Positions 37,926 to 59,975 of a stretch of 60,217 nt of DNA are shown in pieces. Below the pieces are notes generated by a model. It ran no database searches, was not told the DNA's origin, and worked only from the letters and a program-made list of their open reading frames with translations. Each line of letters begins with the position of its first letter. The stretch's first letter is position 1. The translations under genes were made by a program, and so were the position numbers. The stretch is from Candidatus Limnocylindria bacterium (GTDB lineage: Bacteria; Chloroflexota; Limnocylindria; QHBO01): contig DATAOD010000225.1 in NCBI GenBank assembly GCA_036265975.1, positions 1-60,217 of the forward strand. The letters are read 5' to 3'.

Positions 37926-37952
37926 GCGCGTCAGGCAGTGCGCGGCCGATGG

Positions 37953-38651: not shown

Positions 38652-38677
38652 GGATATCGGTCGGCGATGGGCCGGGC

Positions 38678-40887: not shown

Positions 40888-41429
40888 CGCCAGGTCCCTG
40901 GGTTCGCTGCCTCGCCCTCGCTGTCAACTCCCCGGCGGCCGGCGTCCATGGCCGAGTCGATGATCCGCCAGGCGTCCTCGACGCCCAGCCAGCCGGCGAC
41001 ATCGGTCTGCCGACCCTCGAGCTCCTTGTAGATGTCGAAGAAGTTCTCGATCTCGCGCAGCCGATGCGGCGAAAGATCCTGCATCGTGCCCGTCTCGTCC
41101 CAGCGCGGGTCGTCGTGCGCCACGGCCAGGACCTTGTAGTCGTGGCCCTTGTCGTCGGTCATGTCCAGGACGCCGATGGGGCGGGCGCGGACGATGCAGC
41201 CGGGGAACGTGGGCTCGCTGATCACCACCAGGACATCCAGCGGGTCGCCGTCATCGGCCAAGCTGCCTTCGATGAAGCCGTAATCGCACGGGTAGTGCAC
41301 GCTCGAGTACAGGATGCGGTCGAGCACGAACCGATTGCGGGCGTGGTCGTACTCGTACTTGTTGCGGCTGCCGGACGGGATCTCGACCACCACCTCGATC
41401 GTGCCGCGGTCGGCGGGCGTCTCAGCCAC
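40884..41429 (-). CDS. ppa: inorganic pyrophosphatase (family I)
   Basis: [47 protein letters not shown]. Confidence 0.95.
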
Positions 41430-42886: not shown

Positions 42887-43660
42887 CTAGTCGCCGGTTT
42901 TGTCTCGGAGCATCCACCAGAAGAAGCGCGGGTCGTCCCACAGGTAGCGGCGCGCCAGCCGTCGCGGGTCATGCATGAGCCGATACGCCCACTCGACCCC
43001 GACGCGCGTCATCCAGGCCGGCGCCTGCGGCTGCATGCCGGCCAGCACGTCAATCCCCGCCCCGATGCCGACCATGACGGTCCGCGGCAGGTCGGCGGCG
43101 TGATGCGCCATCCAGCGGTCCTGCTTTGGCGAGCCCAGCCCCACGAACAGGAGCTGCGGCGCAGCTTCGGCCAGCTGCCGAACCGCCACCGCGTCATCCG
43201 TGCCGCCGATCTCGAAGCCCATCGGCGGTGAGGTCGCCAGGCGCACGTCGCCGCCCGCGATGCGCAGGCGTGACGCGGCGCGCTCGCCCGCGCCAGGCTG
43301 CCCGCCCATCAACGCCATCGCTGGCCTGGCTGCGTGGCCCGCCATCGCCTCCGGCAACAGCCGCCCGGTGACGGTGCCGCGCAACCGGCGGCCGGCCAGC
43401 CGCACGCCGTACACCACTCCCATCCCGTCGGGCACGCGCAGCCGGGCGCCCTCCAGGATCCGGCGGAACTCCGGATCGCGATGCGCCCGCACGAGGTAGT
43501 CGACATTGGTGGTGACCACGTAGCCGCCCGTGCCGTCGCTGGCCATGGCGGCGATCGCCTCGACCGCGCCCGGGAAGCCGATGTCATCCACCAAGATCGA
43601 ATCGATGCGGACCTGGCGCCCGCGAGCGAGGCCTTTGGTGGCAGCGATATTGCTATCCAA
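42887..43660 (-). CDS. WecG/TagA/CpsF-family glycosyltransferase (GT26; ManNAc/ManNAcA-type transferase)
   Basis: VVTTNVDYLVRAH..LRVPDGMGVV..FVGLGSPKQDRWM..GIGAGIDVLAG..WAYRL. Confidence 0.85.
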   Translation of the reverse strand: MDSNIAATKGLARGRQVRIDSILVDDIGFPGAVEAIAAMASDGTGGYVVTTNVDYLVRAHRDPEFRRILEGARLRVPDGMGVVYGVRLAGRRLRGTVTGRLLPEAMAGHAARPAMALMGGQPGAGERAASRLRIAGGDVRLATSPPMGFEIGGTDDAVAVRQLAEAAPQLLFVGLGSPKQDRWMAHHAADLPRTVMVGIGAGIDVLAGMQPQAPAWMTRVGVEWAYRLMHDPRRLARRYLWDDPRFFWWMLRDKTGD

Positions 43661-43705
43661 GGGCGGCTAGCGTAACGCCCGAAATACCGACCTGCCCCTG
43701 CCGCG

Positions 43706-44662
43706 ATGACTGCAACCCGCCTGCCCGACAAGCAGACCTCACCCCGGGGGGTGACAGGAGGCCAACGCGCCGCTGTGCTCCCCACCTTCCTGATCGGTGG
43801 TGCGCCGAAGGCCGGCACCACCGCCCTGTGGGCGCTGCTCGAAGCGCACCCGCAGGTCTTCATGTCCCGCGTCAAGGAGCCGCGCTTCCTGACGCGCCGG
43901 CTGAACGAGCCGGCGCCCGGCGTGCGGATGATCGGCCCCGACCGCTCCGTGAACTTCCACCGCGGCCTGGCCTGGTACGAGTCGCTGTTCAGCGGGAGCG
44001 ATGGCGCGCTGGCCAGGGGCGAGGCGAGCCCCCAGTACCTCGGCGCCCAGGATGGTCCGGAGCTCATGGAACGCTTCCTGCCGGGCGTGAAGATCGTGTT
44101 CGCGCTGCGCCAGCCGGTGGATCGCGCCTATTCGCATTACTGGCAGCACTGGAAGAAGGGCTGGCGCATGCCACGCTTTGGGCATCTGCTGGACGACCAT
44201 CCGGAGCTGCGGTATCTGGACTACATGAGCCGATATGCCCAGCACGTCGAGCGATATCGCCAGACCTTCGGCCCGGACCGCGTCCACCTGGTCCTGTTCG
44301 ACGACCTCCGCGCAGAGCCGGAGCGCGTATATCGCCAACTGTGCCGCTTCATTGGCGTGGACGATCGGTTCAGCCCGCCCTCCTTCGGGGAGAGCTACAA
44401 CCAGTTCGCCTCGCCCCGGCTGCGGATCCTGCATCGGGCCCTGATGTTCACCCACTTCCGCCGCTTCGGACGCGTCGTCCCCGCGCCGCTGCGCCCAGCG
44501 TTGCGCAGGCTTCGCTCGTGGGCGGAGCGCATGAACCGCGGCAGCAGCAGCTACATCCCGCTCGATCGGGCGCTGCGGGCCCGGCTCACCCACGCTTTCG
44601 AGGAGGACATCGCCTATGTGGAGCGGCTGACACGGCCGCTGCCGGAGTGGCGCGAATCCTGA
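43706..44662 (+). CDS. sulfotransferase (PAPS-dependent family), paralog 1 (divergent)
   Basis: 5'-PSB loop FLIGGAPKAGTTAL. 3'-PB segment FALRQPVDRAYSHYWQ. Confidence 0.8.
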   Translation: MTATRLPDKQTSPRGVTGGQRAAVLPTFLIGGAPKAGTTALWALLEAHPQVFMSRVKEPRFLTRRLNEPAPGVRMIGPDRSVNFHRGLAWYESLFSGSDGALARGEASPQYLGAQDGPELMERFLPGVKIVFALRQPVDRAYSHYWQHWKKGWRMPRFGHLLDDHPELRYLDYMSRYAQHVERYRQTFGPDRVHLVLFDDLRAEPERVYRQLCRFIGVDDRFSPPSFGESYNQFASPRLRILHRALMFTHFRRFGRVVPAPLRPALRRLRSWAERMNRGSSSYIPLDRALRARLTHAFEEDIAYVERLTRPLPEWRES

Positions 44663-45562
44663 TCAGGCGGGCTCGCTCCAGGTGCTCAGATCCCGGCCGA
44701 TGAGCCGCCCCAGCCTCTGGACCTCTGGCGCCAGCTCGGCCGTCAGACGACGGCGAAGGTCGGGGTCCATCGGCGCCCTGGCCTCCGGACGGCTGTTGGC
44801 GGTGACCAGCGCATCGCGAAGGCGATGCACCAGCGGCAGACGGCGCAGCGCCGGCACGACGGCGCGCAAGGGCCCGGGCGGCTGGAAGATGAGCCGCTGC
44901 AGCAGTCCAGAGCGCGGACGCCGGTTCGCGTTCTGCACCGCCAGGTTCACCGCCACGTCCTGGTCGACGCCCAGAAAGGCGAAGGTGTCGCGAACGACCG
45001 CGGCCGGGTCATCGCGCAGGTCCTCGTGGACGATGACGTGCACCCGTTCCGGGCCGAAGATGTTCAGGTAGCGCTGCAGCTGGTCGGCGAAGCCCACGGA
45101 GTGGCGATAGAAGAGCGCCTCGCGACGCAGCGCCGCCCGCGGAATGCGACGACCCGCGCGTCGATCTGGCTCGGCGGCCAGCGCATCGGCGAAATCGGCC
45201 AGGTCCTCGCGCTGGTTGAACAGCAGCTGGCTGTGCTGCGCATACATCACGTCGACCGGATTGCGGAGCATGACGATGGCCTGCGCGCCCGGCGAAAAGG
45301 CCTGGATCTCCGCTGCGGCGCTGGTGGAGTACAGGTACCAGGGGGAGGCCTCGCCGACCCGCTGGTCGGCCCGTGCATCGGCGAACAGGGCCAGGTATTC
45401 GGCCTCGGTCATGCGCCGATACCTGGCATCCAGGTCCGCTCCGAAGTACATCGGCTCCTTGTGGAAGGGCATGAAGACCGCTGGATGCTGCCGCAGGTAC
45501 TCATATAGCGAGGTGGTGCCAGCCTTGAACGCGCCGACGATGAAGAAGTCCGGCCGCTTCAT
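44663..45562 (-). CDS. sulfotransferase, paralog 2
   Basis: True start is the ATG at 45562 (MKRPDFFIVGAFKAGTTSLYEYLRQHPAVFMPFHKEPMYFG..VMLRNPVDVMYAQHSQ). The 590-aa ORF in the track is an upstream out-of-context extension. Confidence 0.85.
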   Translation of the reverse strand: MKRPDFFIVGAFKAGTTSLYEYLRQHPAVFMPFHKEPMYFGADLDARYRRMTEAEYLALFADARADQRVGEASPWYLYSTSAAAEIQAFSPGAQAIVMLRNPVDVMYAQHSQLLFNQREDLADFADALAAEPDRRAGRRIPRAALRREALFYRHSVGFADQLQRYLNIFGPERVHVIVHEDLRDDPAAVVRDTFAFLGVDQDVAVNLAVQNANRRPRSGLLQRLIFQPPGPLRAVVPALRRLPLVHRLRDALVTANSRPEARAPMDPDLRRRLTAELAPEVQRLGRLIGRDLSTWSEPA

Positions 45563-46488
45563 GCCGCGTGCGAGGTGGTCGGCTGCAGCCAGGCGGCCAG
45601 GTCCCTGCCGATGAGCTCGCCAAGCTCGCCGATCTCCGGCGCGAACTCGGCAAGGAGCCGCTCCCGCAGAGTGGGGTCCATCGGCTGTCGGCGCTGGGGG
45701 GTGCTGTTGATCCGCAGGAGGCGCTCGCGCACGGCATGCGCCAGCGGAAAGCGGCGAATGACCGGCACCAGCTTGAGCAGCGGCCCCGGCGGCTGGTAGA
45801 CCATCCGCTGCAGCGTCGGAAAGCGGACGCGCTTGTTCGGGTTGCTGATGGCGAACGGCGGGCGGAAGCCGGGGTCGACGCCAAGGAACTCCAGCACGGT
45901 GCGGTAGACCCCAGGCGTGTCGTCGCGGAAGTCGTCGTAGAGGATGACCAGCACCCGCTCCTGGCCGAACGCCTCGAAGTAGCGCCGCAGCTGCTCGGCG
46001 AAGTGGACGCTCTCGCGGTAGAAGAGGTTCTCCACTCGCAGCGGGCCTGGCGGGAGGCGTTCGCCGCGCCGTCGCGCTGGCTCCGCCTCGAGCGCCGCCC
46101 CGAAGTCCGCGATGTCCTCCTCCACGTTGAACAGCAGCTGGCTGTGCTGCGCGTACATGACGTCCACCGGATTGCGCAGCATCACGATGATCCGCGCCTC
46201 GGGTGCTGCGGCCTTGATCTCGGCGGCGGCCGAGCGCGAGTAGAGGTACCAGGCCGATGCCTCCCCGATGCGCTGGCCGGGGCGTGCGGGCGCGAACAGC
46301 GCCTCGTACTGGCTCAGAGGCATGCGGCCGTAGCGCCGCGTCAGGTCCTCGCCGAAATAGAGCGGCTCCTTGTGGAACGGCATGAACACCTGCGGATGGG
46401 GCCGCAGGTAGTCGTACATGGCCGTGGTGCCGCACTTGAACGCGCCGACGATGTAGAAATCGGGGAGGGGCATGAATGGTCCTGACAC
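45559..46488 (-). CDS. sulfotransferase, paralog 3
   Basis: LPDFYIVGAFKCGTTAMYDYLRPHPQVFMPFHKEPLYFG..VMLRNPVDVMYAQHSQ. 4-nt overlap with paralog 2. Confidence 0.85.
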   Translation of the reverse strand: MSGPFMPLPDFYIVGAFKCGTTAMYDYLRPHPQVFMPFHKEPLYFGEDLTRRYGRMPLSQYEALFAPARPGQRIGEASAWYLYSRSAAAEIKAAAPEARIIVMLRNPVDVMYAQHSQLLFNVEEDIADFGAALEAEPARRRGERLPPGPLRVENLFYRESVHFAEQLRRYFEAFGQERVLVILYDDFRDDTPGVYRTVLEFLGVDPGFRPPFAISNPNKRVRFPTLQRMVYQPPGPLLKLVPVIRRFPLAHAVRERLLRINSTPQRRQPMDPTLRERLLAEFAPEIGELGELIGRDLAAWLQPTTSHAA

Positions 46489-46592
46489 AGCGACGTCAGC
46501 GTTTGACGCCCGCCCTGCTAGCCTAGCGCGAGCGCGACTCGCCGGCTCCCGCCCCCGGCCCCGGCCGAGCTCGAATCGGAGGAGACTGCCTC

Positions 46593-48200
46593 TTGCCTGA
46601 GCCCTGGCTCCCTGCCGACCATGGCACGGAGCAGGAGGGCCTGCGGCGCAAGGTCGCCCACGGCCTGACCTGGACGTTCATCCACACCTGGGGCGGGCAG
46701 GGCCTGAGCCTGCTGGTCTTCCTGGTGCTGGCGCGCCTCCTGACGCCTTCCCAGTTCGGGCTCGTCGCGCTGGCCGCCGTGTTCGTGGCGCTGGCCCAGC
46801 TGGTCATCGACCAGGGATTCGGCGACGCCATCATCCAGCGCCCCACCGTGACGCGCGGCCATATCGACACGGCCTTCTGGGTGGCGGTGGCCACCGGCAC
46901 GCTGCTGGCCATCATCGGGGTGCTGGCCGCCGGGCCGCTGTCGGTCCTGCTGGACGAGCCGCGCCTGACACCCATCCTGCAGGTCCTCTCGCTGCTGTTC
47001 ATCGTCTCGTCGCTGGGCAGCACCCAGCAGGCGCTGCTCCGGCGCGAGCTCGCGTTCCGCAGCCTCGCCACCCGCGGCCTGCTGGCGCTGGCCGGCGGCG
47101 GGGCGGTCGGCATCGTGATGGCGTTTCTCAACTTCGGCGCCTGGGCGCTGGTCGGCCAGCAGATCGCGGCGGCGCTGATCGGCGTGGTCACACTGTGGAC
47201 CATCAGCCCATGGCGGCCGGGCCTCGAGGTCTCCCGCCAGAACTTCGTGGAGCTGTTCAACTTCGGCATCAAGGTCGTCGGCTCCGACGTGCTGACGTTT
47301 CTGAGCCGCAACACGGACAACCTGCTCATCGGCGTATTCCTGGGATCGCGGCTGCTTGGCATCTACGCGGTGGCCTATCGGATCCTGGACACCAGCCAGA
47401 AGGTGCTGGTAAGCGTGTCGCGCCGGCTGGCCTTCCCAGCACTATCCAAGTTGCAGGGCGACCCGGAGCGGATGAAGCGGGCCTACCTCAAGCTGACGCG
47501 CATCGCAGGGTCAGCGATCCTGCCGGGCTACGTCGGCCTCGCCCTGGTCGCGCCGGAGATGACTGTCTTCCTGTTCGGATTCAAATGGCAGGACGCGGGA
47601 CCGGTGGCATCCATCCTGTTCCTGATCGGCCCGGTGCTGTCCATGCAGGCCTTCTCCACGTCGCTGCTCACCGCCGCGGGCTATCCGGACGTGGTGTTTC
47701 GCTTCCGGCTGATCACGACCGTGACGAACGTGGTGGGCTTCATCATCGCCGTGCAGTTCGGCAAGGACATCCTGTGGGTGGCGGTCGCCTACTCGGTGCG
47801 CGGCTACCTGCTGCTCCCCCTCAACCTTTCGTGGCAGAACCGCTACGGCGGCATCAACACGCGCGAGTATCTGGCCCAGCTGAAAGGCACCATCCTGGCC
47901 ACCCTGGCCATGACGGCGGCGGTGCTGGGCATCAAGTTCGGGCTGGGCAGCAGGGTGGGGAACTCCATGCTGCTTCTCCTGGAGGTCGTCACCGCCGCAA
48001 TCGTGTTCGTGGCGGTCATGTGGATCGCCAACCGCACGCTGCTGTACGAGATGCTGCGGGTGGGACGCCAGAGCATCCCGGGCATCAATCGGCTGGGGCG
48101 GCTGTTCACCAGCCGCCGCCGCGCGGCCGCGGCCTCCCGCGAGCCGGCCGCCGAGGCAAAGGCCGATGCGCTGTCGCCATCGACTCGGGGCGAGGAGTGA
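46593..48200 (+). CDS. polysaccharide flippase (Wzx, MOP/PST superfamily), second copy in the window
   Basis: TTG start after ggagga. LRRKVAHGLTWTFIHTWGGQGLSLLVFLVLARLLTPSQFG.. followed by about 12-14 TM helices. Confidence 0.8.
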   Translation: MPEPWLPADHGTEQEGLRRKVAHGLTWTFIHTWGGQGLSLLVFLVLARLLTPSQFGLVALAAVFVALAQLVIDQGFGDAIIQRPTVTRGHIDTAFWVAVATGTLLAIIGVLAAGPLSVLLDEPRLTPILQVLSLLFIVSSLGSTQQALLRRELAFRSLATRGLLALAGGGAVGIVMAFLNFGAWALVGQQIAAALIGVVTLWTISPWRPGLEVSRQNFVELFNFGIKVVGSDVLTFLSRNTDNLLIGVFLGSRLLGIYAVAYRILDTSQKVLVSVSRRLAFPALSKLQGDPERMKRAYLKLTRIAGSAILPGYVGLALVAPEMTVFLFGFKWQDAGPVASILFLIGPVLSMQAFSTSLLTAAGYPDVVFRFRLITTVTNVVGFIIAVQFGKDILWVAVAYSVRGYLLLPLNLSWQNRYGGINTREYLAQLKGTILATLAMTAAVLGIKFGLGSRVGNSMLLLLEVVTAAIVFVAVMWIANRTLLYEMLRVGRQSIPGINRLGRLFTSRRRAAAASREPAAEAKADALSPSTRGEE

Positions 48201-48216
48201 GCGAGGAGTGAGCGAG
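48190..48216. repeat. 11-bp tandem repeat gcgaggagtga x2.4 at the Wzx/TagF junction
   Basis: Read directly: gcgaggagtga gcgaggagtga gcgag. The first unit carries the Wzx stop. The second creates GGAG+GTG (48208) in the frame of the next gene. Confidence 0.7.
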
Positions 48217-48282
48217 CCGGAGCGGCCCCGCGAAGAGCCGGCGGGGACCCCGACCGAGCAGCCGGAGAAGCTGGGCAGGGCC

Positions 48283-49545
48283 ATGTGGGGCCTCAGCGGC
48301 GCACGTCCGGGCCTGCGCATGGCCGCCAAGCTCGCGCGCCGCAACGCGATGTCGGCCGTGTTCCAGGCCAGCCGCCTGTCACGTCGTGACAAGCGCATCT
48401 GGCTCTTCGGCAACCACAAGGGCTTTCGCGACAACCCCCGCTACCTGGCAGAGCACCTGGTGGCGGAGCACCCGGAGATCCAGGTCTGGTGGCAGGCCCG
48501 CAGCCGGAGGGAGGCGGAAGCCGCGCGCGCGGCCGGCCTCCGGGTGGTGATGCGCAGCTCGAGAGCCGGCGCCCGATTGCACCTGAAGGCCGGCGTCGCG
48601 TTCCTGTGTTCCGGCTTCATGGATCTGCGCGTCCCGCGCCTTGGCGGCGCGTACATCGTGCACCTCTACCACGGCACCGCCCTGAAGCGGATCTCCTTGG
48701 ACGTGGAGTTCGAGCGCTTCGTGACCGGCTCCTCGTTCCTGCGCTGGTACGCCCGGCGGCAGCACGCCGGGCTGCAGGCACGCCATCGCCGCGTATCCAT
48801 GGTCGTCGCGGCCGGGAGGCTTGCCCAGCGTCGCTTCGAGACCGCCTTTGGCCTGCCCGCCGAACGCATCCCGGTGCTCGGCACGCCACGCTTCGACGTG
48901 ATCCGCGGCGGTCCTGCCTACGACCGGGTTGCCGGCGGCGATCTCCGCAAGCGCCTCGGCATCGGGGCCGATGACCACCTGGTCGTCTGGCTGCCCACCT
49001 GGCGCGAGGCCGGCGACGCCGGCTGGCTGCCGGCGGTCGACGCGGGGGCGGTGCAGACGGCTTTCGGCGGCAGCAGGGTCAAGATGCTCGTCAAGCCGCA
49101 CCCCTACGCTGATTTCGACGTGTATCGCGACCGACTGCCCGATCATCCCGCCCTGCGCCTGCTTCCCGAGGACGACACGGACGTCAACTGCCTGCTGCGC
49201 ATCGCCGACACGCTGGTCACCGATTACTCCAGCGCGATCTTCGACTATGCGCTGCTCCATCGGCCCATCCACTTCTTCGCACCCGATGCGGCCGAGTACA
49301 CGCAGGGCCGTGGCTTCTACGAGCCGTACGACGACCTGACCGATGGGCGCCACCACCTGGCCTGGGACAGCCTGCTGCCCGCGCTGCGCGATGCTGCGGA
49401 GGGGAGCGATGGGGCCGGCCAGGCCATGGCCGAGCGCGTTGCGCGCCTGGCCGGCAACTGCGAGGAGCCTGGCAACTGCGAGCGCATCTTCCGCGCGGTG
49501 GCTGCCGCGGCCGGGGTGCCGGGCGTGGAGGCCGCGCCCGCGTGA
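48283..49545 (+). CDS. CDP-alditol:polymer alditol-phosphotransferase (TagB/TagF family), paralog 1
   Basis: LFGNHKGFRDNPRYLAEH..HLYHGTALKR..GTPRFD..VTDYSSAIFDYALLHRPIHFFAPD..GFYEPYDDL. The start is uncertain (48166, 48208 and 48283 are all in frame). Confidence 0.8.
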   Translation: MWGLSGARPGLRMAAKLARRNAMSAVFQASRLSRRDKRIWLFGNHKGFRDNPRYLAEHLVAEHPEIQVWWQARSRREAEAARAAGLRVVMRSSRAGARLHLKAGVAFLCSGFMDLRVPRLGGAYIVHLYHGTALKRISLDVEFERFVTGSSFLRWYARRQHAGLQARHRRVSMVVAAGRLAQRRFETAFGLPAERIPVLGTPRFDVIRGGPAYDRVAGGDLRKRLGIGADDHLVVWLPTWREAGDAGWLPAVDAGAVQTAFGGSRVKMLVKPHPYADFDVYRDRLPDHPALRLLPEDDTDVNCLLRIADTLVTDYSSAIFDYALLHRPIHFFAPDAAEYTQGRGFYEPYDDLTDGRHHLAWDSLLPALRDAAEGSDGAGQAMAERVARLAGNCEEPGNCERIFRAVAAAAGVPGVEAAPA

Positions 49546-52731: not shown

Positions 52732-52741
52732 CGGCCGCGCC

Positions 52742-54280
52742 TCACAGGTTCTCGGTGTAGGCGGGCTTGGTGCGCAGCACTTCCCGATGCAGGCCGATCA
52801 GCCGCTCGCGCTCGTCGAACAGCTCGCGGAGGCTGGCGTACAGGCCGCGATACACGCCGAAGAAGTCGCGGTACATGGCGGTGCGATGCTCGTTGGGCTC
52901 GTACTCGTCGTCGAAGTCGACGCACGCGGCACTTGCCTCGGACAGGGAGGCGTAGCGGCCACTGGATACCAGCGCCACCAGGGCGGCGCCCAGGGCCGTG
53001 GTCTCGATCTCCCGGGTCGTTCGCACCGGCACGCCCAGCATGTCCGCCTTGATCTGGTTGATGGGCACCAGCCGCGCCAGGCCGCCGGACGCCGACACGC
53101 GATCGATCCGCACCCCCGCTTCACGCAGCCGTTCCGCGATGTCCAGAACGCTGAAGGCGGCGCCCTCGAACACGGCACGGATGAGGTCCGGTCGCTGGTG
53201 GTTGCGCCCCAGCCCGAAGAAGACGGCGCGTGCGTTGGCGTCCCAGACCGGCGCCCGCTCGCCGAGCAGGTAGGGCAGGAACGTGATGCCGGCCGCGCCC
53301 GGCGGCGCATCGGCCGCCTCGCTGGTCATGGCGGCATACGGGTCTGCCTCACCGGCGTACAGCAGCTGCTTGGCCCATTCGATGATGCCGCCACCCAGGT
53401 TGTTCGAGCCGCCGGCCAGGAAGTGGCCGGGCGCCGCGTGGGGCGCAACGAACAGGCCGCCGCCCTCGTCGCCCAGGTCTCGATCGGTGACGACGCGGAA
53501 GCTGGTGACGGTGCCGGAGACATCGCACGCGTCGCCGACATCGGCCACCCCGGCGCCGTACACCGCGCAGATGGCGTCGTAGGTGGAGACCACTGCGCGC
53601 GCGTCATCGGGCAGTCCGTAGCGGCTGATGAGCTCGCCGCGCAGGGGTATCGTCCGACCGCCGGGAGCCACGACCGGTGGCAGGGTCTCCAGCTCGATGC
53701 CCAGCGACTGCAGCAGGCAGTCGGGATAGGCGCCGGTGCCCGGGTCGTACAGGTATTTGCTGGCGTTGTGATGGTCGGTGACCATCTCGCCGGTGAGGCG
53801 GTGCAGCAGGAAGTCGTTCGGCGTGGCGAACCAATCGGCTGCCGCGAAGCGCTCCGGCTCGTTCTCCTTGACCCAGACGATCTTGGGCAGCACCAGGTCG
53901 GAGGTGACCCGCCCCCGGCTGTTGCCGAGCTCGGCGAACTCCGGCGAGGCCTCGATCCGGGCCGCCTGCTGCGCCGCGCGGACGTCGCTGATCATGATCG
54001 CGTTCCCCAGCGCGGTCCCGTCGCGTGTCATCGGCACCAGGCAGCCGGCGGACGCGGTCACGCTGAATAGCTGGACGTTGCGGGCGAGCTGCGGATCGGC
54101 CAGCACGTTGTCCAGCGCCTGCAGCCCGGCGTTCCACCAGTCGTCGGGGCGCTGCTCCACGCGACCCTCGCCCATCTCCGTGGCGATCGGATGATGCGAG
54201 ATGGCCAGGCGGCGCCCGTCCTCGTCGAACACGACCGCGCGCATGCTCTTGAGACCCAGGTTGACGACGCAGACGCTCAT
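52742..54280 (-). CDS. FGGY-family carbohydrate kinase (xylulokinase-like)
   Basis: VVNLGLKSMRAVVFDEDG..DDWW..PKIVWVKENEPE..YLLGERAPVWD..SGGLAR. Confidence 0.8.
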   Translation of the reverse strand: MSVCVVNLGLKSMRAVVFDEDGRRLAISHHPIATEMGEGRVEQRPDDWWNAGLQALDNVLADPQLARNVQLFSVTASAGCLVPMTRDGTALGNAIMISDVRAAQQAARIEASPEFAELGNSRGRVTSDLVLPKIVWVKENEPERFAAADWFATPNDFLLHRLTGEMVTDHHNASKYLYDPGTGAYPDCLLQSLGIELETLPPVVAPGGRTIPLRGELISRYGLPDDARAVVSTYDAICAVYGAGVADVGDACDVSGTVTSFRVVTDRDLGDEGGGLFVAPHAAPGHFLAGGSNNLGGGIIEWAKQLLYAGEADPYAAMTSEAADAPPGAAGITFLPYLLGERAPVWDANARAVFFGLGRNHQRPDLIRAVFEGAAFSVLDIAERLREAGVRIDRVSASGGLARLVPINQIKADMLGVPVRTTREIETTALGAALVALVSSGRYASLSEASAACVDFDDEYEPNEHRTAMYRDFFGVYRGLYASLRELFDERERLIGLHREVLRTKPAYTENL

Positions 54281-54304
54281 GCCGCGCGCCGCACCCGCAA
54301 GCGG

Positions 54305-55201
54305 CTATTCGGGCTCATCCAGCCGATCCTCCGGAGCCTCTCGACGGCCGCTGGCACGGCCCGCGGACCCGCACAGATCCATGTACTCCTCGGCCATGCG
54401 ACGCACCTCGTCGCGCCCCGAGCCGAGGTAGCGGCGCAGATCGCTGCGTCCAGCCTCGGTCTCCCATGCTAGGCGAATGCCGTCGGCCAGGGCTCGGCTG
54501 ACGCGCGACGATATGTTGACCTTGCCGATGCCGGCCGCCACCAGCTCGGGCAGCTGGCTGCGGCGCACGCCGGATCCCCCGTGCAGCGCGAGCGGACGGT
54601 GGACCGCATCTGCCATTCGGCGGACGACGTCCAGGTCAAGCTCGACGCTGTCCTCCGGCATGCGATGCAGGCTGCCGATGGCCGCCGCCATGATGTCGAC
54701 GCCGGTTGCATCGGCGAACGCAACAGCCTCCTCGGGCAGCGTCAGCAGCGCGCGTGCCTCGTCCAGCGTCATCGCCTCGCTGCCACTGATCACCCCCAGC
54801 TCGCCCTCGACCGCGATCCCATGGCCGGCGGCTCGCTCCACGATGCCGCGGGTGATCTCGACGTTCTCCGCTAGCGGCAGCAGGGAGCCGTCGAACATCA
54901 CGGAGCCAAAGCCGTCGGCCAGCGCGCGATGCACCACCTCCGGGTCGCGACAGTGGTCAAGGTGGACCACCACCGGCACGGCGGCGCGATCGGCCTCGGC
55001 GAAGGCAAGGTCACGGATGGACTCGTAGCCCGCGTACGCGATGGCCCCGGGGCTGACCTGCAGCATCACCGGCGAGGAGCAGGCATCGGCCGCGCGCAGG
55101 ATCGCCTGTGCCGTCTCCAGGTTGGCGACGTTGATCGCGGGCAGGGCATAGCCGGACTCGAAGGCATGGCGGACCGCGTCGACGCCGGCTACGCGTGGCA
55201 T
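54305..55201 (-). CDS. class II ketose-bisphosphate aldolase family protein (FBA_II fold)
   Basis: Start placed at the internal ATG (55201), giving MPRVAGVDAVRHAFESGYALPAINV. VVVHLDHC, EGELG, IGSLH and LHGGSG are the metal/phosphate motifs. Confidence 0.8.
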   Translation of the reverse strand: MPRVAGVDAVRHAFESGYALPAINVANLETAQAILRAADACSSPVMLQVSPGAIAYAGYESIRDLAFAEADRAAVPVVVHLDHCRDPEVVHRALADGFGSVMFDGSLLPLAENVEITRGIVERAAGHGIAVEGELGVISGSEAMTLDEARALLTLPEEAVAFADATGVDIMAAAIGSLHRMPEDSVELDLDVVRRMADAVHRPLALHGGSGVRRSQLPELVAAGIGKVNISSRVSRALADGIRLAWETEAGRSDLRRYLGSGRDEVRRMAEEYMDLCGSAGRASGRREAPEDRLDEPE

Positions 55202-55301
55202 CGGGCAGGCAGGCGGGAGTGCATTGGGGGCCATTGTGCCCGCCCGCGAGCCCATCGGCTACGATGCTCGGCGCTCCCCATGCCAACCGCTCCATTGATC
55301 G

Positions 55302-56213
55302 ATGCCCGGCGCTGAGGCAGGACGCCCCGACTTCTTCATCGTCGGAGCGCCGAAGAGCGGCACCACCGCGCTCTACCAATATCTCCGCCAGCACCCGCAG
55401 GTCTTCATGTCGGACCCGAAGGAACCGAACTACTTCGGGGCCGATCTCGAGCGCCGGCGCACGCCGCGCATCGGCCTCCAGGAGTACCTGCGCTACTTCG
55501 CCGGAGCCGGTGACGCACTGCGCGTGGGTGAAGCGTCGGTGCGCTACCTGCACTCCCGCAGCGCGGCGCGCGAGATCGCCCAGTTCGCGCCGGATGGGCA
55601 GGCGATCATCATGCTGCGCGACCCGGTTGAGATGATGTATTCGATGCATGGTGAGCTGGTGTTCATCGGCGCGGAGGACATCATCGACTTCGCCGATGCG
55701 CTCGACGCGGAGGACGAGCGCAGGCAGGGAAGGCGCATCCCGGCGGGCGCCAACAAGCCGGCGGCGCTCCTCTATCGCGACTCGGCGCACTTCGCCGAGC
55801 AGGTGGAGCGCTACTTCGACGCACTGGGGCGTGACCGGGTGCTGGTGATCATCTACGACGACTTCCGTGACGACACGCTGGGGAGCTACCGGCGCGCGCT
55901 GGAGTTCCTGGGCGTCGACCCCTCGTTCGTGCCGCGGATGGCGGTCGTCAACCCCAGCAAGCAGCCGCGCAGCCGGCTGCTGACACGGCTGATCGCCAGC
56001 CCACCGGGCTGGGTGCGCGGCGTGGCAGGCGCCGTGCTGCCGGCGCGCCAGCGCAAGCGCCTCTTCCGGCGTGCGCTGGCCCTCAACTCGCGCACGGCGC
56101 CGCGCTCGCCCATGGACCCCGAGCTGCGCGCGCGCCTGAAGGCCGAGTTCGCGCCCGAGGTACGGCGGCTGGGCGAGCTGATCGGCAGGGATCTCTCGGC
56201 GTGGAGCGTGTGA
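55302..56213 (+). CDS. sulfotransferase, paralog 4
   Basis: RPDFFIVGAPKSGTTALYQYLRQHPQVFMSDPKEPNYFG..IMLRDPVEMMYSMHGE. Confidence 0.85.
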   Translation: MPGAEAGRPDFFIVGAPKSGTTALYQYLRQHPQVFMSDPKEPNYFGADLERRRTPRIGLQEYLRYFAGAGDALRVGEASVRYLHSRSAAREIAQFAPDGQAIIMLRDPVEMMYSMHGELVFIGAEDIIDFADALDAEDERRQGRRIPAGANKPAALLYRDSAHFAEQVERYFDALGRDRVLVIIYDDFRDDTLGSYRRALEFLGVDPSFVPRMAVVNPSKQPRSRLLTRLIASPPGWVRGVAGAVLPARQRKRLFRRALALNSRTAPRSPMDPELRARLKAEFAPEVRRLGELIGRDLSAWSV

Positions 56214-57472
56214 GCCTGGCCGGCCCGGGGCCGGCGGACCCGGCCGCAGCCGAGGATCGGCCGGATGCGGTACGCCTGCTCATCGTGATGCCAAATGATC
56301 CGGAGCGGATGCGCATCGGCGGCATTGCCTCCTTCGTGCGCGGGTTCGTGAAGTTCGCCCCGCCCGATTTCGACCTTGCCTTCCTTGGCGTGACCGCCCA
56401 GGGGCCCCTCTGGCAGTGGCGCTGGACCGAGTTCGAGGGCAGGGCGCTGCGCTTCATGCCCATCGCCCACGGGCAGCCCGGCGTCCGGAGCCGCGTTCCG
56501 GTCGCCCTGCGCTTCGCCGGCTCGATGCTGCTGCACCGCGGGGCGCTGCGCCTTCCCGGCTGGATCGCCTCGTTTCACCGACCGGGCACGGAGATCGCCA
56601 TGCGCGACTTCGCCATGCCGATGTGGCGCGTCGTCCATCTGGGGGTGGAGGACCTGCGCACACAGGGCAGCGAGAGCCGCTGGCGCCGGCTCTCGGGACT
56701 GCTGGAGTCGCTGGAGCGCCGGGCGTTCGGGCGCATGGACCGCATCTACGTCGTGAACGAGCGCGTCGCGGAGGAGTACCGACGGCGCTTCGGGGAGGTC
56801 GCACAGCGGATCCATTTCCTGCCCAACTGGGCCGATCCGACCATCTTCCATGCGATTGACCCGGTCGAGCGAGGGGCGCTGCGCGGCTCCGTGGCGGCCG
56901 ATATCGGCCAGCAGGTGGACGGCCCGCTGCTGCTCTACGCCGGACGCCTGGAGGGTCAGAAGGACCCGCTGCTGCTTGCGGAGGCATTTGCGGCGTTCGC
57001 GGCGCGGCGCAGCGATGCCCGCCTGCTGGTTGCCGGCGAGGGATCGCTGCAGGAGGCCGTCCGGGCACGCCTGCGGGCAAAGGGCGTGGACGGCCGCGTG
57101 CACTTCCTTGGCACCGTTCCGCGGCTGCGCCTGGCCCAGCTGATGCAGGCGGCCGATGCGCTGCTCATCACGTCCGCCTTCGAGACGGGGCCCACCGTCG
57201 GGCTCGAGGCGCTGGCCTGCGGCCTGCCGGTGATCACCACGCCGGTGGGCCAGGTCGCTCGCGTGGTGGCCGATGGGGGCGCCGGCATCACCACCACCGA
57301 CCGCAGGCCCACCTCCCTGGCCGATGGCATGGCATGGGTCGCCGACCAGCCCCATAACGACCTGCGCGCGGCAGCAGTCGCCGCCGCCGAGCCGTACCTG
57401 GCCGATCGCGTACTCGAGGGGCTGTACGCCTATAACCGCTCGCTGGCGCAGCGGCGGGGGACCGCGGCATGA
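56201..57472 (+). CDS. glycosyltransferase, GT-B fold (GT4 family)
   Basis: LYAGRLEGQKDPLLL..LLVAGEGSL..ITSAFETGPTVGLEALACGLPVITTPVG. The start (GTG 56201 or 56210) overlaps the stop of sulfotransferase 4. Confidence 0.8.
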   Translation: MERVSLAGPGPADPAAAEDRPDAVRLLIVMPNDPERMRIGGIASFVRGFVKFAPPDFDLAFLGVTAQGPLWQWRWTEFEGRALRFMPIAHGQPGVRSRVPVALRFAGSMLLHRGALRLPGWIASFHRPGTEIAMRDFAMPMWRVVHLGVEDLRTQGSESRWRRLSGLLESLERRAFGRMDRIYVVNERVAEEYRRRFGEVAQRIHFLPNWADPTIFHAIDPVERGALRGSVAADIGQQVDGPLLLYAGRLEGQKDPLLLAEAFAAFAARRSDARLLVAGEGSLQEAVRARLRAKGVDGRVHFLGTVPRLRLAQLMQAADALLITSAFETGPTVGLEALACGLPVITTPVGQVARVVADGGAGITTTDRRPTSLADGMAWVADQPHNDLRAAAVAAAEPYLADRVLEGLYAYNRSLAQRRGTAA

Positions 57473-58386
57473 GCGAAGTCCGGCCCAACTTCTTCATCGT
57501 CGGCGCGCCACGCTGCGGGACCACCGCCATGTACGAGTACCTGCGCCAGCACCCCGACGTGTTCATGCCTTACCGCAAGGAGCCGGTGTTCTTCGGCAGC
57601 GACCTGACGAAGCGCCGGCCGCCGATGACCGAGGCCGAGTACCTGGAGCTGTTCCGTCCCGGCGCCAGCCGCTCGCGCCGCGGCGAGGCGACGGTCTGGT
57701 ACCTCTACTCGCAGACGGCTCCGGGCGAGATCCGGGCCTTCAGCCAGGATCCCCGGATCATCATCATGCTGCGCAACCCGGTGGACATGATGTACTCGCT
57801 CCACAGCCAGCTGTTCTTCTCCGCCAACGAGGACCTGGCGGACTTTGGGGCGGCGATCGCGGCCGAGGAGGATCGCCGCCAGGGCCGCCGCATGCCGCCG
57901 CGCGCGCGACGACCGGAGGGCCTGCAGTACCGCGCCTGCGGCCGCTACGCTGCCCACGTGCGGCGCTACCTGGAGGCATTCGGACCCGACGCCGTGCGGG
58001 TCATCATCTATGACGACTTCAGCTCCGATGCTGCCGCCAGCTATCGACAGACGCTCGCCTTCCTGGGCGTCGACCCGAGCTTTCAGCCGGATTTCTCGGT
58101 CGTGAACAGGAGCAAGGCGCCGCGCAGCCGCTGGCTGCAGCAGCTGACCTACGCGCCGTGGTTCATGCGCACCACCGCGCGTCTGCCGAAGCCCGTCAAC
58201 CATCTCATCCGTCGCTCCCTGAAGCGGCTGAACTTCAGGGAGCAGCCACGCACGATGCTCGATCCGCAGCTTCGCGCGCGGCTGACCCAGGAGATGGCGC
58301 CTGACGTCGCTGAGCTGGGCGAGCTCCTGGGGCGCGACCTGAGCAGCTGGAGCCATCCGCCCACGCCATCCGCGAGCGCCGCATGA
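57469..58386 (+). CDS. sulfotransferase, paralog 5 (PSB-loop Lys replaced by Arg)
   Basis: RPNFFIVGAPRCGTTAMYEYLRQHPDVFMPYRKEPVFFG..IMLRNPVDMMYSLHSQ. ATGA overlap with the GT4 stop. Confidence 0.85.
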   Translation: MSEVRPNFFIVGAPRCGTTAMYEYLRQHPDVFMPYRKEPVFFGSDLTKRRPPMTEAEYLELFRPGASRSRRGEATVWYLYSQTAPGEIRAFSQDPRIIIMLRNPVDMMYSLHSQLFFSANEDLADFGAAIAAEEDRRQGRRMPPRARRPEGLQYRACGRYAAHVRRYLEAFGPDAVRVIIYDDFSSDAAASYRQTLAFLGVDPSFQPDFSVVNRSKAPRSRWLQQLTYAPWFMRTTARLPKPVNHLIRRSLKRLNFREQPRTMLDPQLRARLTQEMAPDVAELGELLGRDLSSWSHPPTPSASAA

Positions 58387-59975
58387 CCCTGCTCCGCGAA
58401 CCAAGCCAGCGCGGCTTCATCCTTCGATTCGCGATCCTGGCGGCCCTGCTCCTCTCGCTGCCCCCCATTGCCAACGCCCTGGCCGGCGATAACGAGCGCC
58501 TGCGCCTGGCGCCGGCGGTGGTGGCCGCGGCGATCATGGTCATCGGCTTCGTCTGGTGGCGGGTGGAGTCCCTGCTCGCCTTTGCGCTGTTCGTCCTCTT
58601 CTACGACACGCTGGCGCTGTACATGGGCGGCCCGGTGCGTCGCGTCGACGAGATGGCCGTGCCGGGCCTGGCCCTCGTCGCGGTGTGGAGCGCGCTGCCG
58701 CGCATCAGGGAGTGGTGGTCGTGGCCGCGCGAGCTGGCGATCGCATTCGTGGTGGCCATGGGCATCGCCTCCAGCCTGCTGAACCACGTGCCGCTGCTGA
58801 CCTGGGGCATTCAGCTCGTGCTGGTGATCAAGGCCATCGTCATCTTCTATGTCGCGCTGTGGACGTCCGCGCGGTCATTCCAGATCGCGGCGGGCATGAA
58901 GATCGTGCTGGGTATCGGGCTGCTCATCATGGCGCTCGGCATCGTCGAGCTGTTCAACCCAGTCTGGTTCCAGCAGACACTGCACCTGCAGCAGTTCCTG
59001 AACGCCCGCGGCCCGCTGTTCGCGGTGAAGTCGCTGTTCTTCCACCCTGTGCTGTTCAGCTGGTTCACGGCCTTCATTGCCGTCTTCGCCTGGATCTGGT
59101 ACCTGGACAGCGGCCGGCGCCTGGCGTGGGCCATCGCGGCCGTCTTCAGCCTTGGGCCATTCCTTGGCGAGCGGCGCCGCGCCATCCTGGCCCTGCTGAC
59201 CGCCCTGCTGGTGGGCTTCGCCAGCAACGTGCTTCGCCTTGGCGAGTCATGGCGGCATATCGTCCGGCGCTGGGCGCCGGTCGGCGCGACCATGGTCGTG
59301 ATCCTGGTCCTGTTCATCCCGAGCCTCCTGAACATGTGGCAGGCCACGATCAACAACTACATCATCCCCGGCGGCCTGCCGACGCCCGGTCCGAGCGGCA
59401 CGCCGATCGAGGAGCCGACCGGCGAGGGAGAGGCGCCGCCCCAGGTGCGCATCGCGCTGTACGACGGAGCGGCCAGGGTGGCGGCCGACTACTTCCCGTT
59501 CGGCGGCGGACTGGGCAAGTGGGGGAGCTGGATGAGCCGCGTCAACTACAGCGACCTCTACTGCAAGTACCAGGTGTGCCACATCCACGGCCTGCGAGAA
59601 AAGAACCCCGTCAACGTGACGGACACCTTCTGGCCCGAGATCATCGGCGAGCTCGGCTTCCTTGGGCTCGCCGCGTACCTGGTGTTCCTGGGCAGCCTGG
59701 GACGCGGCCTGTGGCGTGCCGCGGGACGCTACCGGCACGGATTGCTGCGCGTCTTCGCGCTGGGCTCGCTGCTGATCCTGGCCCAGGCCCTGATCGAATC
59801 GCTGGCGAGCCCGATGTTCCACTCGCCGCCGCGCGCGTACCTGCTGTACCTGGCGATCGGTGTCGCGGTCGCGATCGGCTCACGAGCGCCTGACGATTGG
59901 GTCGAGCCTGCCGCGAATGAGGCCGATGCGCCGTCCGCGCCGCCGCCGTCGCCGGCGGCCGAGGCCGGGATCTAG
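58383..59975 (+). CDS. O-antigen polymerase/ligase-like polytopic membrane protein (Wzy family), second copy
   Basis: More than 10 TM helices, with a large loop (PGGLPTPGPSGTPIEEPTGEGE..FPFGGGLGKWGS). ATGA overlap with sulfotransferase 5. Confidence 0.6.
   Translation: MTLLREPSQRGFILRFAILAALLLSLPPIANALAGDNERLRLAPAVVAAAIMVIGFVWWRVESLLAFALFVLFYDTLALYMGGPVRRVDEMAVPGLALVAVWSALPRIREWWSWPRELAIAFVVAMGIASSLLNHVPLLTWGIQLVLVIKAIVIFYVALWTSARSFQIAAGMKIVLGIGLLIMALGIVELFNPVWFQQTLHLQQFLNARGPLFAVKSLFFHPVLFSWFTAFIAVFAWIWYLDSGRRLAWAIAAVFSLGPFLGERRRAILALLTALLVGFASNVLRLGESWRHIVRRWAPVGATMVVILVLFIPSLLNMWQATINNYIIPGGLPTPGPSGTPIEEPTGEGEAPPQVRIALYDGAARVAADYFPFGGGLGKWGSWMSRVNYSDLYCKYQVCHIHGLREKNPVNVTDTFWPEIIGELGFLGLAAYLVFLGSLGRGLWRAAGRYRHGLLRVFALGSLLILAQALIESLASPMFHSPPRAYLLYLAIGVAVAIGSRAPDDWVEPAANEADAPSAPPPSPAAEAGI

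Follow-up and report, generated by a model that had tools for sequence, protein, structure and literature searches.

A Limnocylindria gene island with five sulfotransferases and TagF-type enzymes, predicted to assemble a sulfated surface glycopolymer containing polyol-phosphate

The 60,217-nucleotide contig DATAOD010000225.1 (NCBI GenBank assembly GCA_036265975.1), referred to here in its full length as the window, comes from a metagenome-assembled genome (MAG) of a Candidatus Limnocylindria bacterium, a member of a class of Chloroflexota and not a classical Gram-positive. An actinobacterial source, to which the 70% GC and mreB/mreC had pointed, was rejected, since the identical and orthologous proteins all come from Candidatus Limnocylindria/Chloroflexota MAGs; a firmicute source is likewise dismissed. 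It carries an 18.5 kb island in which five sulfotransferase genes (ST1–ST5) lie among genes for glycan assembly. Coding-type open reading frames (ORFs) were picked by GC content at third codon positions (GC3) in a window that is 70% GC throughout; domain calls use Pfam (gathering thresholds) and NCBIfam models, and structural assignments use matches to the PDB. The island is bracketed on the left by the inorganic pyrophosphatase gene ppa (40884–41429, − strand; Pfam Pyrophosphatase, E = 1.4e-55), a conserved flank to a variable region, and on the right by an nrnA-like gene, and appears complete within the window. Its genes run TagA, ST1, ST2, ST3, Wzx, TagF1, TagF2, a nucleotidyltransferase (NTP transferase), an iron-type alcohol dehydrogenase (Fe-ADH), an FGGY kinase, an aldolase, ST4, GT4, ST5 and Wzy. 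They form six transcription units, diverging from short intergenic gaps of 46, 105 and 47 bp, with 4-bp start/stop overlaps at ST3/ST2, TagF1/TagF2, NTP transferase/Fe-ADH, GT4/ST5 and ST5/Wzy and a 13-bp overlap at ST4/GT4. GC content across the locus (0.68–0.72) is the same as in the remaining contig, a comparison that gives no hint of a recent horizontal acquisition. Independent samples and MAGs contain identical or orthologous contigs, which excludes an assembly artefact as the source of the arrangement.

All five sulfotransferase ORFs proposed in a first-pass annotation of this DNA are present with coding-type codon bias, and five of five pass the Pfam thresholds for both Sulfotransfer_3 (PF13469, 53–71 bits against a cutoff of 27; E = 1.5e-19 to 6e-14) and Sulfotransfer_1 (PF00685, 39–53 bits, cutoff 22). 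Five significant matches within 17 kb cannot be attributed to chance. ST1 (43706–44662, + strand; Sulfotransfer_3 E = 1.5e-19) carries GAPKAGTT, KEP and LRQPVDRAYS and has no transmembrane segment. ST2 (44663–45562, − strand; E = 1.2e-15; GAFKAGTT, KEP, LRNPVDVMYA) is the downstream gene of a pair with ST3 (45559–46488, − strand; E = 6e-14; GAFKCGTT). ST4 (55302–56213, + strand; E = 1.8e-14; GAPKSGTT) is the first gene of an ST4–GT4–ST5–Wzy operon, and ST5 (57469–58386, + strand; Sulfotransfer_3 E = 3e-14, Sulfotransfer_1 E = 6e-14) reads GAPRCGTT, with an arginine replacing the lysine of the 5′-phosphosulfate-binding (5′-PSB) loop. GC3 is 0.87–0.91 in ST1, ST3, ST4 and ST5; ST2 is the 3′ part of a long ORF, with GC3 of 0.80–0.92 from residue ~300. 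The public gene call for ST3 begins at the second methionine, at 46473, five codons after the GTG start, and in this 304-residue form the protein is 100% identical to GenBank HEX3220469.1, ‘sulfotransferase [Candidatus Limnocylindria bacterium]’.

ST2–ST5 are mutually 51–62% identical, with ST1 an outlier at ~34% to them. Conserved motifs across the five are K/R-x-G-T-T, K-E-P and L-R-x-P. The 5′-PSB strings quoted in the first-pass annotation are exact in all five proteins, and its consensus for the 3′-phosphate-binding (3′-PB) segment fits ST2–ST5; ST1 departs from it, reading ALRQPVDRAYSHY. The 3′-PB arginine is invariant, and the 3′-PB serine is present in ST1, ST4 and ST5 and is an alanine in ST2 and ST3. 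With ST3 as query, the closest solved structure by sequence is 3RNL (E = 2.4e-40), an Alicyclobacillus sulfotransferase of uncharacterised function, followed by the human heparan sulfate (HS) enzymes 3-OST-3, 3-OST-1 and NDST1. In a HMMER alignment to 3-OST-3, the loop lysine falls on the PSB-loop lysine, the KEP glutamate on the glutamate of A-E-P-H-F-F and the L-R-x-P arginine on the 3′-PB arginine, positions that in 3-OST and NDST are the residues that bind 3′-phosphoadenosine 5′-phosphosulfate (PAPS) and the catalytic base.

We built a structure model for one paralog, ST4, with AlphaFold (AF2; pLDDT 92.6, pTM 0.90). Foldseek places it closest to 3RNL (E = 1.3e-18, TM 0.88), then to NDST1, 3-OST-1, 3-OST-3 and 3-OST-5 bound to PAP or PAPS (E ~1e-9 to 1e-10), with curacin-type, tyrosylprotein and cytosolic sulfotransferases further down; the top 50 listed PDB matches are all sulfotransferases, many with PAP or PAPS. 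The model shares with the HS 3-OST/NDST enzymes and 3RNL the fold, the 5′-PSB loop, the K-E-P glutamate at the 3-OST catalytic-base position and the 3′-PB arginine. It differs from the animal enzymes in its 14–20% identity to them and in an extra C-terminal helical region, and the bacterial proteins are soluble and cytoplasmic. There is no hydrophobic segment in any of ST1–ST5, and the five should therefore act in the cytoplasm, where PAPS is made.

Purifying selection is evident in all five genes, with dN/dS against orthologs of 0.12–0.27 (ST1 0.27; ST2 0.14–0.21; ST3 0.23–0.24; ST4 0.16; ST5 0.12–0.17), as compared with 0.12–0.32 for other genes of the locus. An outlying value of 2.7 for ST1 against its counterpart in related locus L007 was discarded, the high-scoring segment pair crossing an in-frame stop upstream of the start. 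Ortholog identities are 75–79% for ST1, 79–83% for ST2 and 84–89% for ST5. The family to which these proteins belong is large (3,394 clusters at 50% identity with E ≤ 1e-30; 18,219 with E ≤ 1e-10), and NCBIfam holds no model for them. Taking HMMs, motifs, fold and selection together, we regard ST1–ST5 as genuine homologs of PAPS-type carbohydrate sulfotransferases. Their setting, a Wzx/Wzy glycan locus with a TagA and two TagF-type enzymes, is likewise as first annotated, and so is the excess of sulfotransferases over glycosyltransferases within the locus (5:2, with two TagF-type phosphotransferases in addition).

Pfam verified the first-pass assignments for most of the neighbouring assembly genes. 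The WecG/TagA-family (GT26) glycosyltransferase (42887–43660, − strand; Glyco_tran_WecG E = 1.2e-43; NCBIfam wecG_tagA_cpsF 124 bits, cutoff 69) is predicted to add a ManNAc or ManNAcA-type sugar to undecaprenyl-diphosphate-linked GlcNAc (Und-PP-GlcNAc), and has orthologs at 72–74% identity in the related loci L006, L007 and L008. The Wzx-type flippase (46593–48200, + strand; Polysacc_synt_3 E = 2.3e-84; ~12–13 hydrophobic segments) adjoins ST3 in relatives too. The GT4 glycosyltransferase (56201–57472, + strand; Glycos_transf_1 E = 6.6e-30) has an L041 ortholog at 74% identity. The polymerase is a partial case: the 530-residue membrane protein at 58383–59975 (+ strand) has no Pfam or NCBIfam match, and its membership of the Wzy/O-antigen-ligase superfamily rests on a profile–profile comparison with a Pfam-confirmed Wzy_C protein elsewhere in the window (32112–33674; hhalign probability 97.9%, E = 3.5e-13). 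The two proteins have similar topologies, with ~10–12 hydrophobic segments and a large loop at ~324–419 in the 530-residue protein, whose homologs are present in most related islands. We predict that it is the repeat-unit polymerase, of a superfamily in which polymerase and ligase are not separable.

Candidates for the first and last steps lie 20 kb upstream of the locus. A WecA/TagO-family polyprenyl-phosphate GlcNAc-1-P transferase (21924–22886, + strand; Glycos_transf_4, PF00953, E = 2.7e-39; ~11–12 hydrophobic segments) is followed by a LytR-CpsA-Psr (LCP) family protein (22903–24402, − strand; LytR_cpsA_psr E = 3.2e-24), a candidate ligase to peptidoglycan. LCP genes also occur near some related islands, and we infer the link of this one to the locus. 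A PglC-like gene (31453–32118) is also upstream in the window. No ABC-transporter domain is found in any coding-type ORF of the window, so a TagGH exporter is missing from it and a Wzx is present instead; Wzz/PCP (polysaccharide co-polymerase), Poly_export and STAND or two-component genes are likewise not among its genes. The lack of PCP and outer-membrane polysaccharide export (OPX) genes in the window fits a monoderm envelope or a different export route.

TagF1 (48166–49545, + strand; Glyphos_transf E = 1.1e-49; public start at ~48283, giving 420 residues) and TagF2 (49542–50846, + strand; E = 1.9e-49; 434 residues) are TagF-like CDP-alcohol phosphotransferases, tandem paralogs 62% identical to one another. 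TagF1 aligns to the catalytic region of Staphylococcus epidermidis TagF (3L7I residues 360–660, E = 1.7e-21) and also to TarL, Bcs3 and Cps3D. The histidine of the HGT motif is known to be catalytic in TagF; both proteins read YHGTALKR opposite WHGTPLKR of TagF, keeping HGT-x-LKR. TagF1 orthologs are 86–88% identical, with dN/dS of 0.13. At 420–460 residues, the pair is nearer in size to TarB and TarF, whose profiles have 362 and 388 positions, than to TarL (profile of 562) or TagF (729 residues).

Between TagF2 and ST4 lies a four-gene operon (50843–55255, − strand) that the first-pass listing had omitted. Its first gene encodes a class II ketose-bisphosphate aldolase (54305–55255, − strand; F_bP_aldolase E = 7.6e-82), which passes only the cbbA ketose-bisphosphate aldolase subfamily model (233.5 bits, cutoff 215.6). 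Next come an FGGY-family sugar/polyol kinase (52742–54280, − strand; FGGY_N and FGGY_C; XylB model at 257 bits, under the cutoff of 380), closest in the PDB to gluconate, xylulose and glycerol kinases, and the Fe-ADH (51583–52731, − strand; Fe-ADH E = 2.5e-38 and ADH_Fe_C), which is under every NCBIfam equivalog cutoff and closest to methanol dehydrogenases, 1,3-propanediol oxidoreductase and lactaldehyde reductases. A role for the latter as glycerol-1-phosphate dehydrogenase is unlikely (partial match, E = 3e-5). The last gene is a LicC-like nucleotidyl (probably cytidylyl) transferase (50843–51586, − strand; NTP_transf_3 E = 1.9e-12) with LicC (1JYK, E = 2.8e-8) as best PDB match; its orthologs are labelled ‘phosphocholine cytidylyltransferase family protein’ by NCBI.

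This cassette probably makes a CDP-activated small alcohol or polyol and feeds it to TagF1 and TagF2. The same order of aldolase, FGGY kinase, Fe-ADH and NTP transferase is repeated in unrelated soil MAGs (L083:6411–10741, L084:6427–10735 and L085:6417–10726), and genes that use a CDP-alcohol always come after it: in L083 and L084 these are a pair of TagF-like genes, and in L085, a Methylomirabilota MAG, a pair of CDP-OH_P_transf genes inside a Wzx/Wzy cluster. Neither a TagD-type (CTP_transf_like) gene nor an IspD/SDR TarIJ-type gene is present in the window. We found no description of the cassette in the literature; the pneumococcal CDP-2-glycerol (gtp1-3), CDP-arabinitol-type and fucose-catabolism-type schemes are analogies only. 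On the 392-kb JGI metagenome contig of L083, the cassette is adjacent to three TagF-like genes, an IspD/SDR fusion (a TarIJ-like CDP-ribitol synthase) and two sulfotransferases (L083:10724–17773), with no Wzx or Wzy within 10 kb of it, possibly the locus of some other organism for a sulfated teichoic acid of the classical type.

To place the island in a wider context, we scanned 185,579 species genomes and confirmed 539 relatives. The best ~40 are Limnocylindria/Limnocylindrales or ‘uncultured Chloroflexia’ MAGs; distant relatives (42–50% identity) come from Phycisphaerae, Truepera, Binatia, Kuenenia, Myxococcota, Gammaproteobacteria, Nitrospinota, Acidimicrobiia and Cyanobacteriota. The full gene order is repeated at 70–91% amino acid identity in SMAG_U3925 (L007 with L042) and SMAG_U1237 (L006 with L041), and partly in SMAG_U967 (L008 with L044). 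Islands of relatives hold 1 to 5 sulfotransferases, and at least three genes within 10 kb are found in 22 of 45 loci with at least 15 kb of sequence (five in L013). At the lower end, the ppa–nrnA bracket of L033 and L053 spans ~10 kb, as against 18.5 kb here, and encloses one sulfotransferase, as against five, together with a GT4, a Wzx and a Wzy-like protein. L009, L032, L039 and L083 are further cases of TagF-type genes in the company of sulfotransferases. The architecture is not unique, islands with three to five sulfotransferases being common in Limnocylindria and TagF-plus-sulfotransferase loci occurring in several other MAGs. We found nothing relevant in the literature on Limnocylindria or Chloroflexi with sulfotransferases; one mat study reported its two Chloroflexi MAGs as lacking PF13469.

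In a neighbour-joining tree of 149 sulfotransferase sequences, ST1–ST5 each fall in their own orthogroup with members from several MAGs. ST2–ST5 do form a paralog group, as the first-pass annotation had supposed; a recent lineage-specific expansion is ruled out by the separate, old, multi-species orthogroups. That the paralogs are old and individually kept argues for five non-redundant specificities. The island's left flank is also stable: ppa orthologs (73–89% identity) border the sulfotransferase islands of relatives, and relatives on megabase contigs keep a left neighbourhood of GGDEF, DUF3048, a Cys/Met-PLP enzyme, a PucR-type regulator, GlnA and ppa. With tblastn, the ST3 ortholog at L054:10001–10923 breaks up into three successive pieces (residue coverage of 0.70, 0.08 and 0.19), which reflects either a frameshifted pseudogene or a sequencing error.

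The relatives also bear on the supply of PAPS. APS-kinase signatures lie within 10 kb of sulfotransferases in 13 relative loci, joined by ATP-sulfurylase signatures in three (L038, L046 and L057); Pfam verified five of the linked proteins (APS_kinase E ~1e-58; ATP-sulfurylase E = 1e-81 to 1e-96). Among these, the order in L057 is sulfotransferase, nrnA-like gene, sat, cysC. The right flank of our island is the 3′ end of such an nrnA-like gene, of DHH/DHHA1 phosphoesterase type and truncated where the contig stops (59975–60217, − strand; DHHA1 E = 1.8e-7, 32 bits, cutoff 25.9). Full-length orthologs best match NrnA (PDB 5CET/5JJU, E = 5e-38; NCBIfam NrnA, E ~1e-23), and homologs stand beside sulfotransferase genes in 10 relatives (for example, L057:10872–12005, L038:2037–3368, L054:13682–14800 and L014:14987–16102), adjoining sat–cysC in L057 and L038. 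The nrnA-like gene may be a conserved right flank, a pAp-recycling partner (candidate pAp phosphatase) or both. The linkage of cysC, sat and nrnA in relatives is strong circumstantial evidence that this sulfotransferase family uses PAPS. Standalone APS kinases (~180 residues, ORFs up to ~205) lie within 10 kb of sulfotransferases in ten loci of Limnocylindria/Limnocylindrales and ‘uncultured Chloroflexia’ (L017, L018, L019, L020, L022, L025, L026, L028, L029 and L035), which likewise contain an ST3/ST2-type tandem pair and a TagA gene; the kinase of L017 and of L028 directly adjoins an ST4-like sulfotransferase. Such kinases suggest a PAPS supply dedicated to glycan sulfation.

With moderate confidence, we predict that the island builds an anionic surface glycopolymer by Wzx/Wzy block polymerization, the logic by which enterobacterial common antigen and pneumococcal teichoic acids and capsules are made, from a repeat unit that carries polyol-phosphate and several O-sulfates, a combination that is rare in bacteria. 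A WecA/TagO-type enzyme would make Und-PP-GlcNAc, the source being proposed because TagA-family enzymes use that acceptor. TagA would then add a ManNAc(A)-type sugar and GT4 another sugar, and the two primase-sized TagF-like enzymes would each add one alcohol-phosphate from the CDP-activated donor made by the cassette. While the unit is lipid-linked on the cytoplasmic face, up to five of the soluble PAPS-dependent enzymes ST1–ST5 would each sulfate a different hydroxyl; O-sulfation seems likelier than N-sulfation because there is no de-N-acetylase in the locus. Wzx would flip the unit, the Wzy-superfamily protein polymerize it, and the LCP enzyme might attach the polymer to peptidoglycan. We infer the step order, the acceptors, how many sulfates a unit carries, which alcohol is used, the priming enzyme and the wall attachment, and everything said of the product is a prediction from sequence for an uncultured organism. 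The conserved gene order at 70–91% identity and the ST3/ST2, GT4/ST5, ST5/Wzy and ST4/GT4 overlaps count for a single system, and the lack of an ABC exporter gene in the window counts for the Wzx/Wzy route. It also speaks for this reading that the window has two Wzx genes, two Wzy-like genes and two initiators, so that a second system (Wzx1, Wzy_C, the PglC-like enzyme and the nonulosonic-acid genes) can be told apart from the island. By analogy, the cyanobacterial polysaccharide synechan, in which two sulfotransferases give two sulfates per eight sugars (PMC8205485), supports reading five conserved sulfotransferases as several sulfate positions.

Several points weigh against this prediction. 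Neither sat, cysDN, cysC nor cysQ was found in the 60-kb window, where a motif scan gave one spurious out-of-frame hit, and a Limnocylindria CysC search in which NCBI accessions were compared placed none adjacent to HEX3220469.1, a result that is indecisive for this MAG. The island itself (41.4–60.0 kb) has no initiating phosphoglycosyl transferase, and that the WecA-like gene primes the TagA step is a guess. The match behind the Wzy assignment is remote, within a superfamily that also holds ligases. No PCP, OPX or ABC component was seen in the window, and no equivalog that would name the CDP-alcohol was found in NCBIfam, the PDB or the literature. Five sulfotransferase genes need not give five sulfates on every unit. 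At the motif level, ST2 and ST3 have phenylalanine for the PSB-loop proline and alanine for the 3′-PB serine, and ST5 has arginine for the loop lysine. The terms ‘LCP-attached wall polymer’ and ‘heavily sulfated’ used in the first-pass annotation stay conjectural: a distance of 20 kb separates the locus from the upstream LCP and WecA-like genes, and the window has no PAPS-synthesis genes.

One alternative, which we consider improbable, follows classical teichoic logic: WecA/TagO and TagA would make a single linkage unit, TagF1 would act as primase and TagF2 as processive polymerase of a poly(alcohol-phosphate) chain, GT4 would glycosylate that chain like TagE/TarM, the sulfotransferases would decorate chain or sugars, the Wzx-like protein would export it and the Wzy_C-superfamily protein would be a ligase. 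A TagA beside two TagF-family genes does resemble TagA/TagB/TagF, Pfam names Wzy_C ‘O-antigen ligase’ so that the family covers ligases, L083 joins the cassette to TagF-like, TarIJ-like and sulfotransferase genes with neither Wzx nor Wzy inside 10 kb, and L084 has an LCP, the cassette and two TagF-like genes. Against these stand the want of a TagGH-type ABC exporter in the window, the short units normally moved by Wzx flippases, and the size and 62% identity of the two TagF-like proteins, which put them closer to single-addition TarB/TarF than to polymerases. Moreover, Wzx and the Wzy-like protein stay with the sulfotransferases even in islands that have no TagF.

We give equally little credence to a second alternative, that not all of ST1–ST5 are directed at a single repeat unit, the enzymes serving different glycans or acting in an alternative, sub-stoichiometric or conditional manner to give light or variable sulfation. 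The window does contain two Wzx, two Wzy-like proteins and two initiating transferases, as well as genes for making a nonulosonic acid and a di-N-acetylated uronic sugar; the sulfotransferases occupy three separate transcription units, their number varies from 1 to 5 among relatives, and in synechan deletion of one of two sulfotransferases had little effect (PMC8205485). Against this, the second glycan system lies outside the ppa–nrnA bracket, and all five sulfotransferases are kept in the same positions across species at dN/dS of 0.12–0.27, with translational coupling to this island's own GT4 and Wzy.

That there is little or no sulfation, through pseudo-enzymes, non-carbohydrate acceptors or an organism without PAPS, is very unlikely: it could draw on the PAPS-synthesis genes not found in the window, on the deviating motifs of ST2, ST3 and ST5 and on the fact that no ~300-residue member of the family, 3RNL included, has a known substrate, but the deviations are common to whole orthogroups (Phe-for-Pro in those of ST2 and ST3; GAPRCGTT in that of ST5, 13 aligned sequences) or, like the 3′-PB alanine, to about half of the 149 family members, the genes are under purifying selection, arginine is the native catalytic residue at that loop position in tyrosylprotein sulfotransferases, glycosaminoglycan sulfotransferases come nearest among the structural matches that have been characterised, relatives have cysC, sat and nrnA in physical linkage with these genes, and the genomic context is exclusively glycan assembly.

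Each ingredient of the island has a precedent. Enterobacterial common antigen (ECA) is made by WecA, WecG, WzxE and WzyE, and classical wall teichoic acid (WTA) by TagO, TagA, TagB, TagF, TagGH and LCP. The window resembles both in its WecA/TagO-type primer, WecG/TagA-family enzyme, ManNAc-type sugar genes, TagB/F-family enzymes and LCP gene. ECA differs in having neither phosphodiester nor sulfate, and classical WTA in its TagGH exporter and TagD or TarIJ, which were not found here, and in decoration with D-Ala or sugars and not sulfate. Pneumococcal capsules and teichoic acid offer Wzx/Wzy units with glycerol-, ribitol- or arabinitol-phosphate (PMC1391919), inserted by a dedicated phosphotransferase from a CDP-donor made by genes in the same locus; they have no sulfotransferases, and their donor routes (gct, TarIJ-type, gtp1-3) differ from the aldolase/FGGY/Fe-ADH/LicC-like cassette.

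Among sulfated polymers, synechan (xss, Synechocystis sp. PCC 6803) is made by a Wzx/Wzy cluster in which PF00685/PF13469-type sulfotransferases lie among glycosyltransferases, two of the former and eight of the latter giving 2 sulfates per 8 sugars (PMC8205485). There, sulfate is presumed to be added to the lipid-linked unit in the cytoplasm, and the number of sulfotransferase genes tracks the number of sulfates. The ratio is 2:8, as against 5:2 plus two phosphotransferases here, with no TagF-type enzyme and no CDP-alcohol pathway; the host is a diderm cyanobacterium with PCP, OPX and XssQRS regulators, whereas PCP and OPX were not seen here. The capsule of Cobetia marina KMM 1449, →4)-α-L-Rhap2S-(1→3)-β-D-Manp6PGro-(1→ (PMC11766843), combines chemically proven sulfate and glycerol phosphate in one repeat unit from a cluster with sulfotransferase and PAPS genes, where ours is a gene-based prediction. 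It is a Gram-negative kps/ABC-transporter capsule, its paper mentions one sulfotransferase, and the authors suggest that glycerol phosphate derives from phosphatidylglycerol through an LTA-synthase-like enzyme and not from a CDP-alcohol and TagF. For wps-1 of Actinoplanes missouriensis, a sulfated polysaccharide has been proposed from genetics (PMC13390465); it is a monoderm Wzx/Wzy cluster with sulfotransferases, one of HS type, and a neighbouring sulfate adenylyltransferase/APS kinase gene, and differs in having two sulfotransferases of different families and no TagF-type genes. With Cobetia marina, synechan and the pneumococcal capsules as forerunners (PMC11766843, PMC8205485, PMC1391919), the earlier statement that no system like this had been described was too strong. 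What we have not found described is the combination in one island, the 5:2 ratio, the CDP-alcohol cassette and the class-wide multi-sulfotransferase islands.

Bacterial sulfated polysaccharides are still regarded as rarities, and papers of 2021 and 2026 describe them as essentially confined to cyanobacteria (PMC8205485, PMC13390465), with marine Cobetia and Vibrio capsules as proven exceptions. The locus and the class-wide pattern suggest heavy investment in glycan sulfation by a whole lineage that is abundant in soil and freshwater, and whose islands often include a dedicated APS kinase. Sulfate esters together with teichoic-type phosphodiesters would give an unusually dense polyanion, with a bearing on cation binding, desiccation tolerance and phage recognition and, we suggest, possibly on the origin of the soil ester-sulfate pool. 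We put forward only tentatively, and with some doubt, the broader idea that Limnocylindria are characteristically coated by a highly sulfated, phosphodiester-bearing sulfo-teichoic polymer with at least three sulfates per short repeat unit and an unusual alcohol-phosphate from the cassette's CDP-alcohol pathway; if true, such a coat would add a chemically new class to the bacterial wall polyanions and could be one microbial origin of soil ester sulfate. Biochemistry and glyco-engineering could draw on the locus for five candidate regiospecific sulfotransferases, in a set that is compact and conserved, and for a CDP-alcohol pathway; the synechan pathway has already been moved to another host (PMC13125312).

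Between ppa and TagA lies a gene for a secreted PLC/AcpA-type phosphoesterase (41422–42822, − strand; Phosphoesterase E = 4.8e-66; one N-terminal hydrophobic segment), an accessory gene that relatives do not keep. The slot varies by species, L007 having an AT3-SGNH O-acyltransferase there (L007:11700–13745), and its occupant is by prediction a species-variable accessory function in decoration or turnover. Further upstream, five consecutive overlapping genes (11739–16807, + strand) encode a hexapeptide acetyltransferase, a UDP-GlcNAc 2-epimerase, a DegT aminotransferase, a GFO/MocA oxidoreductase and a UDP-sugar 6-dehydrogenase, a domain set matching the WbpA/B/E/D/I pathway to UDP-2,3-diacetamido-2,3-dideoxy-mannuronic acid, with a Wzx gene before and a GT2 after. 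The sugar of this pathway could be the donor for the TagA-family enzyme.

A second glycan module (31453–40887) is inserted between glnA and ppa, a site that is empty in the relatives L004 and L005. It comprises the PglC-like initiating transferase, the Wzy_C protein, a 484-residue protein with no significant Pfam match (sub-threshold Glyco_trans_1_4, E = 0.012) and a nonulosonic-acid (legionaminic/pseudaminic-type) set of DegT, a PseB/PglF-like dehydratase, a PglD-like acetyltransferase, NeuC and NeuB. The glnA ORF (29472–31220, + strand) has ~145 domain-free N-terminal residues and overlaps the gene for a PucR-type HTH_30 regulator (28652–29689); the true start of glnA is probably well downstream of the ORF start. 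Downstream of mreB/mreC, three large and probably secreted proteins are encoded at 2447–8810 (+ strand), a Big_5 protein, a 1131-residue GH18 protein (FN3, SH3, FlgD-Ig, Big_5) and a CAP-domain protein, which may have cell-surface or wall-remodelling functions unrelated to the sulfotransferase locus.

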